In this document: positions 23,764-30,433 of the stretch, piece after piece
How the letters are laid out: every line of letters begins with the position of its first letter
Numbering within the stretch: the stretch's first letter is position 1
Virus record (IMG/VR): IMGVR_UViG_2939142107_000001
Location: 26,843-90,842 of that record
Direction: 5' to 3' (one strand)
DNA length: 64,000 bases
From: a virus
Lineage: Duplodnaviria; Heunggongvirae; Uroviricota; Caudoviricetes
Translations under genes and position numbers: made by a program
The notes under the pieces: model-generated
Told to the model about the DNA's origin: nothing
The model's input: only the letters and a program-made list of their open reading frames with translations
Databases searched by the model: none

Positions 23764-23821
23764 GTTTGTCTAGCCCGGTTAATACCGGGCTGGTTTAGAC
23801 ATCTTAAGTGGGTGTTAATTT

Positions 23822-24331
23822 TTAATTATGGTTAATCATATCTAACAGTATTTTTAGCTTCCTGCATGTGTTATCAATATCTTTACATAATATGACATCA
23901 AGGATGTTTGGTAGTCCTAATACCATATGAGAAATGAAACCCTCGCCAACTTGTAGATTATGGGTAGTCTCATCTGGATTCACGTATTCAATGGTTTTAG
24001 TTTTATTTATCCCATAATCTTTATAACAGATGATTACAGGAATGTTCTTCTGTTCAGCAATCTGCAACTCTATTCCTAGCCCTGTTGATGGAAAACTACA
24101 TTCTGCAATTATTACATCAGATTTCTCAACCATATCTCTGTCCCAAATGTAACAAAGTCTAGATTTGTTACTTTCAGGGCGCTTTGATAATTCTGGGTCA
24201 CTATTTATCAAAGCATATTTTACGTTGTTATTTTGAGATAGACCTTTTGCAAGGCTGTGAATCCAATTACTGTACTCATGGAAAATTTCCCTTGGAACAT
24301 GAGTTAAAGCGCATGCGATATATATATTCAT
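23822..24331 (-). CDS. Nucleoside 2-deoxyribosyltransferase-like (Rossmann/SLOG-type) protein, second gene of AT-rich two-gene module
   Basis: 169 aa; MNIYIACAL N-terminus and FPSTGLGIELQIAEQKNIPVI resembling the NDT catalytic D-x-G-T-x-x-E-x-G segment; start codon overlaps upstream stop (TAATG). Confidence 0.7.
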   Translation of the reverse strand: MNIYIACALTHVPREIFHEYSNWIHSLAKGLSQNNNVKYALINSDPELSKRPESNKSRLCYIWDRDMVEKSDVIIAECSFPSTGLGIELQIAEQKNIPVIICYKDYGINKTKTIEYVNPDETTHNLQVGEGFISHMVLGLPNILDVILCKDIDNTCRKLKILLDMINHN

Positions 24332-25371
24332 TAAGAAGCAGACCTTACGTTTGGGATAAGAAATTGGTGTCCAGTAATTTCAGATGAAATTGCATCTATA
24401 AACTGTGACGGAGATTGTTGAATAAATTCAGCAATAATCCAGTTTTCTTTTTCATTTAGTAACTGTCTTAGCTTAAGTGGGTCATACCGACATAGCTCAC
24501 TTAATCGATGCATAGCTGCTAGGGTTATAACCAATGGCGATATTGAAACAGAAGTATGCTCAGATTGATTGTTTTTACGTTTGAGATACCAAAGAGTCTC
24601 TGCGCCATTGATATAGTAAAGATCTCTTCTTATTTTTTGATGAAATTCAGTTAATTGCGGCATGTTGGACGATTGATTTTCATTAAAATCAAGTAATGAT
24701 TCTACTGATTTTATTTTGTACTTTTCTCTTTCAAACAATTCGAACGCTGGCGGTAGAATGTCGAAAACTGTGTCGAACCGAAAATCCTTGGATAAAATCG
24801 CAGTGAAAAACAGGCTATTGTCTGACTCATTCAAAACGAACTCAGCATCGATCAGTGGAATAAATATATCATCAGTTACATCATAAGTAAGGCAATATGT
24901 ACGATGAATATATGGCAATCCAGAAAAAAGGTTTTTTATATTGTACACCCCCTCATGAGAGGTGCCGTCAATATATTTTGAAAAAGACGGAAGTATACCC
25001 TCATTTTTTATTTTTACTTTTATATCAGATAAGTTATCAATTTGGGCTGTATTTTCACCCCTAGCAACACCATGATGCTGTTTGAAGTTTATATTGCGAG
25101 ATGAAAGTAACGCCTTTACTGCATTCATGAATGAATAATAGTGCAAAAGTGGGGCTGATTGGTTGGGTAAACCATTGGCCGCCTGATTAAATACTTTTGC
25201 TTGCTCCCAATAAAAAAGAGCCTCATCTTTTTCGTTTCGCTTTAACCAGAGTTCGACAAAATCCCAATGACTGTATGTAAGTACATTCCTTGCGGTTAGG
25301 TCAGGGTTTAATAATGCTTTATGAGGCTTCATGACCTTGTTCCTAATTTTCAGCGGCTTAATATTCATCAT
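24331..25371 (-). CDS. Hypothetical 346-aa protein, first gene of AT-rich two-gene module
   Basis: GGAGGA 9 nt upstream of ATG; AT-rich codon usage unlike neighbours; no catalytic motif recognised (N-terminal FYWEQA...LLHYYS...KALL pattern). Confidence 0.7.
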   Translation of the reverse strand: MMNIKPLKIRNKVMKPHKALLNPDLTARNVLTYSHWDFVELWLKRNEKDEALFYWEQAKVFNQAANGLPNQSAPLLHYYSFMNAVKALLSSRNINFKQHHGVARGENTAQIDNLSDIKVKIKNEGILPSFSKYIDGTSHEGVYNIKNLFSGLPYIHRTYCLTYDVTDDIFIPLIDAEFVLNESDNSLFFTAILSKDFRFDTVFDILPPAFELFEREKYKIKSVESLLDFNENQSSNMPQLTEFHQKIRRDLYYINGAETLWYLKRKNNQSEHTSVSISPLVITLAAMHRLSELCRYDPLKLRQLLNEKENWIIAEFIQQSPSQFIDAISSEITGHQFLIPNVRSAS

Positions 25372-25461
25372 TGTAATAATCCTCCACCCAAAGTTACTAG
25401 ATTGTAAAATATATATTTTTGTTCCACAACAAAAATCTCTATTGGCTACTGACGTAATTAA

Positions 25462-26103
25462 TTATAAATAGTTTTCTTTGCCGGTAAGTAAGCCTTGAGG
25501 AACTCGCTTGTCGGCTAGACATTGGGTTCCGCGAATTATGTTAATCAGAGGGCTTAGTAACGATGGTTCCTGGCGGGCCTCAACTTCTCCAGCCATTGCC
25601 CTGATGTAGTCGGCGCTTGCAACGTTGTTATATTCCGTTGCGAAGCAGCATAACAACGACAGAACGTGCTCTGTCGTTATTTCGCTCCAGTTGATGTTGA
25701 AAAATTCATCGCCTTTTTTGTCGTGTTCGGAATCGAAGATGCTTTGGTGGAGGATGTATTTGCCGGATTCTTTGCGCGGTAACTTGATCGCTTTCTGGCG
25801 TTCCAGCTCCTTGTAAATCTGCATTGCTTCAATTAGTACCGGCCTGCCGTTCATGAAGGGATCGCGCAACCTTACACGCTGGCCAACTCGACCCGTAATA
25901 AAGCTGTTTTCCTCTTCCACCAGCACGATAAAACCCTTTTCCTCTTTTTCTTGCAATTCGCGCAGCAGCTGGAGTTCCATATCGCGGCGGCGTTCAGGGT
26001 AGCTGGTCCGCTCAGCCATTATCAGCTCATTGTTGATCCATGCGGCAGTCATTGACGCCGGTTTGCCGACGCTCATCGAAACAACGCATATTTTCTTATC
26101 CAT
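25462..26103 (-). CDS. Hypothetical protein at the P1 mat position
   Basis: ATG at 26103 after AAGGGG; 213 aa; synteny only. Confidence 0.45.
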   Translation of the reverse strand: MDKKICVVSMSVGKPASMTAAWINNELIMAERTSYPERRRDMELQLLRELQEKEEKGFIVLVEEENSFITGRVGQRVRLRDPFMNGRPVLIEAMQIYKELERQKAIKLPRKESGKYILHQSIFDSEHDKKGDEFFNINWSEITTEHVLSLLCCFATEYNNVASADYIRAMAGEVEARQEPSLLSPLINIIRGTQCLADKRVPQGLLTGKENYL

Positions 26104-26292
26104 AGCGCCCCTTATAAAAAAGAAAAGCCACCAGCGGCGGCTTAGCAATACAACTGAAGGTAGCGCCCGGTACTCAGACTGTGCCGTCCATGGAATATTT
26201 GAAAAGGGATCCATCCGTACCGGGCATGTGATGATTCTGACTGAAGTCACTTGTCAGTTGTCAATTATTTCAGATTAAAAATAATATATTTA

Positions 26293-26853
26293 TTAGTGCA
26301 TGATGTTTGCCATCTCATAAGCGTCAGCCAGCAACTCCATCTCTGACTTGTTCAGCAAGGTGAATTCTTTCTTGCCTCCAACCACACCATCGGCATGAAC
26401 AGGGACCAGCCAGGGGTATTTTTCTCTTACTTCAGCCGGTGCTGCATGCTGGTGGTGCCATCTACAAAGTGGCAATTGCTTTTTGTGACAACCAGGCGCG
26501 GTACGACCGGAGATATGGTGCAGAGACACCTCTTCAGATATTACTCCATGCATATAGCAGGCAATGCAGGGGAGAGCACCAAGAGCATTGGCTATGCGCC
26601 GCTCCTCCGCCGTCGGTGTTCGTCCCTTCAAGCCACGAGATTTTATTTTTACCGCGCTTTTCCGCGTTTTGCTGGCTGGTGGGCGCTCTTTCTGTTTAGC
26701 GATACGGCGGTCGATAGTATTCCGCATTTTCTGATATTGAGATTCTCGCCAGGCCGGATCAGCCAACTTCTCCCGTTGCCGAGCGATCGCTCGTTCTCTG
26801 GCTGCCTTCTGCCACTTACGGTGCTGTTCAATTTTTTGTTCGATTGTTTTCAT
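26293..26853 (-). CDS. ref: Ref recombination enhancement function (HNH-type nuclease)
   Basis: 186 aa from MKTIEQKIEQHRKWQK; Cys/His cluster (CIACYMHG...HH...CRWHH); position cre-cra-ref. Confidence 0.85.
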   Translation of the reverse strand: MKTIEQKIEQHRKWQKAARERAIARQREKLADPAWRESQYQKMRNTIDRRIAKQKERPPASKTRKSAVKIKSRGLKGRTPTAEERRIANALGALPCIACYMHGVISEEVSLHHISGRTAPGCHKKQLPLCRWHHQHAAPAEVREKYPWLVPVHADGVVGGKKEFTLLNKSEMELLADAYEMANIMH

Positions 26854-29079: not shown

Positions 29080-29238
29080 TAGTTTTGCCGCCGTTTCGTA
29101 ATACGACTTTGGATTCACTATTTAATGTGTCTTCAGCGTTGTAGAGCGGCTCAGAAGGAAATGAGCAAACAGGGAAACCTTATACAACGGCATTACAGCT
29201 ATGCATTGCTCATCTTACACACAGCGCAATGTTGTTAG

Positions 29239-30433
<1,195 letters not shown>

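Follow-up and report, generated by a model that had tools for sequence, protein, structure and literature searches.

What is encoded by the foreign-looking segment that occupies, in a P1-like phage-plasmid, the place where phage P1 itself carries the EcoP1I type III restriction-modification (R-M) genes? The 64-kb stretch of DNA analyzed here (64,000 nucleotides of the IMG/VR virus record IMGVR_UViG_2939142107_000001, hereafter the window) has a P1-like backbone in which darB, ulx and lxc are followed by mat, ref, c8 and cre. The segment in question, a cargo of 1,698 bp (23764..25461), is flanked by lxc (23515..23763, plus strand) and mat (25462..26103, minus strand) and contains only two open reading frames (ORFs), both on the minus strand: a gene for a 346-aa protein of the YaaC family (24331..25371) and, directly downstream of it, a gene for a 169-aa protein with the fold shared by DNPH1 and the nucleoside 2-deoxyribosyltransferases (NDTs), a predicted N-glycosidase (23822..24331). 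We propose, at a probability of roughly one half, that the two form a horizontally mobile module of the abortive infection (Abi) or toxin-antitoxin (TA) type lodged in a cargo hotspot of P1-like elements, with the glycosidase as the effector and YaaC as its sensor or regulator. The assignment to defence or TA function draws on genomic context and domain identity, making the cassette a candidate system of this kind.

Domain identity of the two proteins

The smaller protein had been suspected, in a first-pass annotation made from the nucleotide sequence, of carrying an NDT-like catalytic segment with a candidate glutamate at residue 88. The peptides on which this was based, MNIYIACAL and FPSTGLGIELQIAEQKNIPVI, are both present in the 169-aa product with the glutamate at that position, and profile and structure comparisons place the protein in the superfamily. 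First, a profile built from 68 homologues matches Rcl/DNPH1 in the PDB (E = 6e-5), with the segment PSTGLGIEL lying over the catalytic PSLGVGYEL and Glu88 over the catalytic glutamate. Second, the AlphaFold (AF2) model, with a predicted local distance difference test score (pLDDT) of 97, recovers DNPH1, NDTs and BcmB, a CMP N-glycosidase, as its best Foldseek matches at a probability of 1.0; the template modelling (TM) scores against the DNPH1/NDT structures are 0.70-0.78 on the target, at 14-18% sequence identity. Third, D64, E88, G84 and G86 do not vary across the 68 homologues, at least 90% of which keep Y4, and Asp64, Glu88 and Tyr4 align respectively with the general acid, the nucleophile and the β1 tyrosine of this enzyme class. 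The protein thus presents the flavodoxin-like fold together with the Glu/Asp/Tyr set by which the NDT/DNPH1 superfamily is recognized, and, as judged from conserved residues and the predicted structure, activity as an N-glycosidase or transglycosylase is very probable. The Pfam NDT model PF05014 scores the window protein at 22.1 bits (E = 1.8e-4), short of the gathering cutoff of 28.8, and is a precomputed assignment for many of its close homologues.

Additionally, the family displays features of its own, namely a T-H-V-P-R loop after β1 and a conserved C-terminal segment (Y116, N118-P119-D120, Q127, G129 and G131). It is a small family, with 34 representatives at E ≤1e-30 among the 1.84 billion searched. 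Several distant relatives (P0294, P0297, P0298, P0301 and P0314) carry, fused behind the NDT-like domain, a long and charged C-terminal tail, coiled-coil-like and 150-350 residues in length; no Pfam domain was found in the tails of these longer proteins, which thus give no Rosetta-stone clue to a partner.

The larger protein, in which no assignable motif had been noticed initially, does belong to a recognizable family. It scores 157.6 bits on PF14175 (YaaC-like), whose cutoff is 27 (E = 6.3e-46), with residues 34-332 covering positions 18-307 of the 307-position profile, and its model (pLDDT 93) reveals a HEPN-fold core: a four-helix up-down bundle, as is defining of that fold, formed by helices at approximately residues 49-65, 73-91, 279-296 and 310-333. 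The bundle is split between its second and third helices, a place where HEPN domains often have an insert, by an α/β insert of about 180 residues (approximately 92-278). While the core superposes best on AF0298 (2hsb), a Foldseek search of the complete model against the PDB returned nothing significant, the best match being Usb1 at E = 0.55, and the insert is therefore without a recognizable relative of solved structure. A reading of YaaC as a 2H phosphoesterase, on account of an H-x-T motif at residues 156-158, was considered and discarded: the match to Usb1 is insignificant and H156 lies within a helix of the model.

The survey of the HEPN superfamily published in 2013 (PMC3710099) locates the canonical Rx4-6H motif where helix 3 ends, and describes AF0298- and AbiV-type versions in which the arginine is kept, the histidine is lost, and an alternative conserved histidine is supplied by an insert between helices 2 and 3. 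In YaaC the canonical motif is absent, no histidine being found 4-6 residues after R295, and the superficially similar RNINFKQH was rejected as a canonical motif because its arginine, R91, is not conserved. The invariant residues are instead R295 at the end of helix 3, H288 within helix 3, and H100 and H156 in the insert, a pattern that fits a predicted active site of the alternative kind described for AF0298 and AbiV. The same histidines and arginine are kept without exception by YaaC proteins that lack the NDT-like partner, among them representatives from Firmicutes, one cyanobacterium and an archaeal metagenome-assembled genome; YaaC therefore has a conserved site of its own. Searches of the literature on YaaC or PF14175 in connection with defence, HEPN domains or deoxyribosyltransferases found nothing relevant.

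Conserved coupling of the pair

As the first-pass annotation had described, the stop codon of the YaaC gene overlaps the start codon of the glycosidase gene by one base, forming a TAATG junction (24329..24333, minus strand), and the upstream gene has its own Shine-Dalgarno sequence (GGAGG, 25381..25385), 9 nt ahead of its ATG. The one-base overlap implies translational coupling of the two genes. That this arrangement reflects a persistent association is apparent from a survey of species-representative genomes, in which 80 YaaC loci were compared and the 40 nearest to the window protein were taken as its subfamily. In all 40 loci of the subfamily an NDT-like gene lies directly downstream on the same strand; none of the 40 more distant loci has such a partner, and no recurrent alternative partner was found for these unpaired YaaC genes. 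When viewed from the NDT-like side, YaaC is directly upstream in 7/7 viral loci and in 75 of the 77 metagenome loci that could be assessed. The overlap of -1 is the commonest junction (24 loci), and nearly all the others are gaps of no more than 20 nt. The pairing of this YaaC subfamily with the NDT-like protein is near-obligate.

The clearest exception is informative as to the chemistry. On a soil metagenome contig (L115, 1304..2814) YaaC is replaced by a dCTP-deaminase-like protein of 331 aa (PF22769, E = 1.4e-27) with a hydrophobic C-terminus, to which the NDT-like gene is coupled by a 4-nt overlap. This variant links the small protein to nucleotide-pool chemistry, and may itself constitute a related nucleotide-depletion module.

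Neighbourhoods, hosts and prevalence

The company kept by the pair is that of defence islands. Within a distance of two genes to either side, the 40 paired loci variously carry type I R-M subunits, OLD-TOPRIM/AriA-like ATPases, AbiEii-type AAA proteins and Mrr, as well as PbeA, MADS components, the PADLOC candidate PDC-M19 and integrases. A chromosomal version of the pair in E. coli (59% identity, loci L088-L093) sits between a phage-type integrase and the Dpd 7-deazaguanine DNA-modification cluster, represented by DpdD, PLD, a DEAD helicase and QueD, with BrxR upstream; in one variant of this island (L089) JetD and a ScoMcrA-like HNH protein are additionally present. The unpaired YaaC loci (L037, L040-L087) likewise often have as neighbours the methylase and specificity genes of type I R-M systems, Mrr, EcoRI, Eco57I or AbiEii-type ATPases, and were for that reason rejected as a negative control for neighbour content. 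The whole YaaC family shows this association with defence islands, and the flanks of the unpaired genes suggest that YaaC on its own may act as an Abi-like factor encoded by one gene.

The distribution of the paired locus is wide but patchy, its hosts including Proteobacteria, Bacteroidota, Planctomycetota, Nitrospirota, Spirochaetota, Myxococcota and Armatimonadota. Identical or near-identical copies of the cassette itself are found in 85 PLSDB plasmids and in 109/5,426 complete E. coli genomes, almost all of them on IncY plasmids of about 80-100 kb. Given that the ulx-lxc backbone occurs in 699 of the same 5,426 genomes (about 13%), about 16% of the P1-like elements of E. coli carry the cassette. 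The annotations on these plasmids read only "YaaC family protein" and "hypothetical protein", the former being also the RefSeq label of the identical large gene. No match to the cassette was found among the deposited phage genomes searched, and in IMG/VR it is present in three P1-like and four unrelated viral contigs.

The lxc-mat interval as a cargo hotspot

Similarity to P1-like phages ends at the stop codon of lxc (23763) and restarts at the stop codon of mat (25462), so that 23764..25461 is exactly the foreign segment. Its composition is correspondingly distinct. The GC content of the cargo is 0.350 as against a mean of 0.484 (standard deviation 0.031) over 1,179 equally large, non-overlapping windows in the 64 kb (z = -4.3), and GC at third codon positions is 0.30-0.32 in the cassette genes as against 0.44-0.58 in darB, ulx, lxc, mat and cre. 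The AT-richness, which had been judged by eye, is thus more than chance, and the pair is foreign in composition in other viral contigs too.

In phage P1 (NC_005856) the res and mod genes of EcoP1I lie between mat and lxc. A tblastn search of the whole 64-kb window with P1 Res and the ORFs of the mod region found no Res or Mod homologue, which agrees with the earlier statement that the cassette stands in the res-mod position of P1 and that no res- or mod-like ORF is present. The sole match was the transposase of an IS5 copy at about 29219..30410, near the cre and immunity region, which shares 99.4% identity over 341 aa with the IS5 of P1; in P1 this element is embedded in the mod region.

Comparison with other P1-like elements reveals that the interval is occupied in several different ways. 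It is empty in RCS47 (L002), where it measures 39 bp; it holds a RelA/SpoT-family gene in vB_EcoM-673R5 (L003) and SJ46, split in the former into two ORFs which both match the PADLOC candidate PDC-S33; it holds one gene for a 316-aa protein with a partial match to PDC-S34 in JL22 (L005); and it holds a helix-turn-helix gene together with a hypothetical gene in Ro157c2YLVW (L006). The lxc-mat interval is a variable cargo hotspot of P1-like elements and not the scene of a one-off replacement. The first-pass proposal that a horizontally acquired module had replaced res-mod accordingly holds in part: foreign composition and a variable cargo slot are both found, and the cassette, given a slot that is empty in RCS47 and filled otherwise in SJ46/673R5, JL22 and Ro157c2YLVW, is better described as one of several alternative cargoes than as a replacement in a given direction. 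No direct or inverted repeats flank the cargo ends and there is no sign of transposition; exchange of cargo by recombination within the conserved flanks is on this account more likely than transposition. Should an antiphage role be borne out, P1-like phage-plasmids would have in the lxc-mat interval a hotspot for defence cargo.

A second AT-rich island (GC about 0.36), the only other stretch of the window that is comparably AT-rich, comprises 38673..40529 (minus strand) with 37662..38102 (plus strand). The former encodes a 618-aa protein in which an AT3 acyltransferase is fused to an SGNH domain (PF01757 and PF19040), a fusion which we take to be the architecture of the OafA-type O-antigen acetyltransferases, and a transposase fragment with an rve integrase core domain adjoins the gene. 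This island is probably a separate lysogenic-conversion cargo. The window also contains 14 matches, with at most 3 mismatches, to the P1 C1-operator consensus ATTGCTCTAATAAATTT between 12481 and 61488, where 0.31 would be expected by chance; these operator-like sites fit an immunity network of the P1 type.

Expression signals and sequence variation

No C1-operator-like site is present in or near the cargo itself. Upstream of the YaaC gene lies an AT-rich spacer of 90 nt (25372..25461) extending from its start codon to the stop codon of mat, which contains, besides the Shine-Dalgarno sequence, a candidate promoter discerned by eye: a weak sigma-70-like pair of TTGTGG (25424..25429) and TACAAT (25401..25406) separated by 17 nt. 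A scan of the spacer for promoters found no site scoring at least 9/12, and a hairpin that the spacer can form is no better than those of shuffled sequences (z = 0.14). At the other end, the untranslated 3' part of the cargo (23764..23821), between the convergent lxc and cassette genes, folds into a GC-rich hairpin (core 23772..23791) of -20.5 kcal/mol (z = -6.0, with 0/200 shuffles folding as well). The consensus terminator scan made no call at this hairpin, which is without a clean T-run; the hairpin is probably a terminator.

The small gene begins ATG-AAT-ATA-TAT-ATC and hence has a short (AT)n run immediately after its start codon (about 24316..24327, minus strand). In one E. coli chromosome (L091, GCA_020079265.1) a 2-bp deletion in this run (L091:11056..11070) frameshifts the small gene and leaves YaaC intact, which could result from slippage, phase variation or an assembly error. 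Seemingly truncated small genes beside an intact YaaC in two related loci (103-aa calls in L088 and L093) were dismissed as start-site artefacts of the gene caller, the DNA being identical.

Proposed function and its alternatives

The above observations can be assembled into a scheme in which the cassette would be carried as lysogenic-conversion cargo by the P1-like phage-plasmid. The HEPN-fold core of YaaC and its insert might bind either the effector or a nucleic-acid or nucleotide cue, such that YaaC would silence the glycosidase in uninfected cells and release or activate it upon infection. Once unleashed, the DNPH1-like enzyme would cut the base-sugar bond of nucleotides, either deoxynucleoside or nucleoside monophosphates (dNMP/NMP) or a related nucleotide cofactor, and thereby starve the invading phage and the cell of building blocks. 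Any toxicity, the substrate, the identity of the effector, the trigger and the expression in the lysogen are inferences of this scheme; observed are the pair itself, its coupling and near-obligate co-occurrence, its foreign composition, the folds, the conserved residues of catalytic type and the defence-rich neighbourhoods.

The small glycosidase is favoured as the effector for several reasons. It retains an intact catalytic-type triad, an NDT-like effector has a precedent in retron Ec86, and the variant in which it is coupled to a dCTP-deaminase-like protein points to nucleotide chemistry. Further, the coupled order, with the presumptive regulator upstream and the effector downstream, is a common TA layout. 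Type II TA systems commonly consist of an upstream regulator and a downstream effector that are translationally coupled, and the adjacency and coupling of two genes are observed here. The earlier suggestion of a horizontally acquired defence or TA module is in this sense sustained as regards foreign composition and residence in a cargo slot, the defence or TA part being carried by context and domain identity.

Several points weigh against this scheme. The Pfam NDT match of the window protein lies below the curated cutoff, and PADLOC-DB v2.0.0 has no model for the pair, neither protein matching any of its families at E up to 1. The promoter scan lends no support to the presumed expression in the lysogen. 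The chromosomal frameshift noted above is a single natural case of a disrupted small gene beside an intact YaaC, too little to argue for either direction of toxicity. Further, the invariant His/Arg constellation of YaaC is common to its unpaired relatives, and YaaC could equally be the effector; finally, as the unpaired loci are R-M-associated too, the comparison of neighbourhoods is without a true negative control.

The penultimate of these points leads to a serious rival, in which the roles are reversed: YaaC would be a variant HEPN RNase of the AF0298/AbiV type and the NDT-like protein its antitoxin or regulator, acting like the minimal nucleotidyltransferase (MNT) of HEPN-MNT pairs, or else producing or breaking down a nucleotide ligand by which the RNase is gated. 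That YaaC has an invariant site of its own, and that it exists as a solo gene, give this reading its weight. However, it does not possess the canonical Rx4-6H motif, and to our knowledge no RNase activity has been reported for the family. Moreover, a toxin encoded upstream of an antitoxin that relies on coupled translation is the rarer layout, and the full catalytic-type triad of the small protein would be superfluous in an antitoxin that merely binds. We regard the reversed assignment as possible, at appreciably lower odds than a glycosidase effector under the control of YaaC.

The remaining explanations are less likely. Among them, a role confined to plasmid addiction would make the cassette a TA pair that stabilizes the P1-like plasmid prophage through post-segregational killing and has no antiphage function. 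A pair of small, coupled genes residing on a low-copy plasmid prophage would suit such a role, and R-M systems, which occupy the same slot in P1, also behave as addiction modules (PMC10879196). Yet in other phyla the pair is mostly chromosomal, beside R-M and other defence genes, and the sizes (346 and 169 aa) and enzymology of its products differ from those of the classical small TA proteins. P1, furthermore, has an addiction system of its own, phd-doc. An explanation of this kind is accordingly doubtful.

A little more doubtful still is a speculative version of immunity based on nucleotide signalling. The DNPH1/NDT-like enzyme, as a relative of TIR and SLOG enzymes, might be able to exchange bases on the sugar, and might make or destroy a messenger on infection; the insert of YaaC would read this messenger and turn on a non-canonical HEPN RNase. 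Tentative as it is, this arrangement, if true, would provide the first function for YaaC and a new signal chemistry for bacterial immunity.

It is improbable that the cassette serves counter-defence or otherwise benefits the phage, with the glycosidase destroying the signalling nucleotides of host immunity or unusual nucleotides. Its proximity to the antirestriction genes darB and ulx, the occurrence of the pair on other viral contigs, and the action of DNPH1-type enzymes on modified dNMPs (there are PDB entries with the name 5-hydroxymethyl-dUMP N-hydrolase) are all compatible with this idea. However, the other occupants of the slot are defence-type cargo and not antirestriction genes, most copies of the pair reside in bacterial chromosomes of many phyla beside R-M and Abi-type genes, and the cassette is present in only the minority of E. 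coli P1-like elements given above and is not conserved in P1-like phages. Lastly, an ordinary nucleotide-salvage or biosynthetic pair without any role in conflict is very unlikely: while the NDT/DNPH1 superfamily does include salvage and biosynthetic enzymes (NDT, BcmB/MilB), the patchy distribution, the foreign GC content, the residence in mobile elements and a phage cargo hotspot, and the defence-rich neighbours with no metabolic operon partners all speak against it.

A glycosidase effector regulated by YaaC is thus the reading we prefer. The E. coli host and the small size of the cassette (1.7 kb) make its function directly testable.

Relationship to known systems

The first-pass annotation could not match the pair to a named system, and this stands for PADLOC-DB v2.0.0 and the literature searched, in which no account of a YaaC and NDT-like pair was found; NCBIfam and PHROGs were uninformative for both proteins. 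The resemblances to known systems are accordingly partial ones.

At the level of the small protein, the closest relatives are DNPH1/Rcl and the NDTs (PF05014), with which it shares the fold, the catalytic segment, the aligned aspartate and glutamate, and the tyrosine of the β1 loop. It is unlike them in its low sequence identity, its extra C-terminal segment, its T-H-V-P-R loop, its YaaC partner and its location on mobile DNA. Among defence systems the relevant counterpart is retron Ec86/Eco1 (type II-A), whose NDT-like effector has been reported to deplete adenine derivatives (bioRxiv 10.1101/2023.08.16.553469), and the NDT-like defence effectors in the literature searched are only retron-associated ones. 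The likeness, under the scheme proposed here, would be that of an NDT-like toxic arm silenced by a partner until infection. Unlike the retron, the cargo has no reverse transcriptase (RT) ORF, and the partner is a HEPN-fold protein in place of the RT-msDNA. Rfam has no match within 23000..26500 at E up to 1, and thus no known non-coding RNA is present in that region, and the retron effector is not within the top 50 structural matches of the 169-aa model.

At the level of YaaC, the HEPN-MNT pairs and the AF0298-type HEPN-T proteins resemble the cassette in that its core superposes on AF0298, in the Arg/His pattern, in the two-gene organization and in the association with R-M systems. In contrast to HEPN-MNT, YaaC is coupled to something other than a minimal nucleotidyltransferase, is about three times larger on account of an insert without a solved relative, and is encoded by the first of the two genes. 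The single-gene HEPN Abi proteins AbiV, AbiD/F and AbiJ share with YaaC the HEPN fold, a patchy distribution and residence in R-M islands, although the Pfam families of these proteins have no sequence match to it. In the AbiJ group either a HEPN or an NDT domain is fused to the N-terminal domain, so that one kind of system already contains both domain types, and NDT domains fused to such Abi N-terminal domains have been predicted to be toxins (PMC3710099). The difference is that in the present cassette the HEPN-fold and NDT-fold proteins are encoded by separate, coupled genes. EcoP1I, finally, shares with the cassette the lxc-mat slot in P1 and has no homology to it.

Should the pair prove to be antiphage, it would represent a system built from HEPN and NDT/DNPH1 in a combination for which no published description was found, and would furnish the first functional context for the YaaC family. 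A nucleotide N-glycosidase effector outside the retrons would, if true, broaden the known range of nucleotide-depletion immunity. Set beside retron Ec86, the HEPN-MNT pairs and the HEPN Abi proteins, the cassette is best read as an undescribed pairing of two superfamilies, HEPN and NDT/DNPH1, that have both already been seen in conflict systems.

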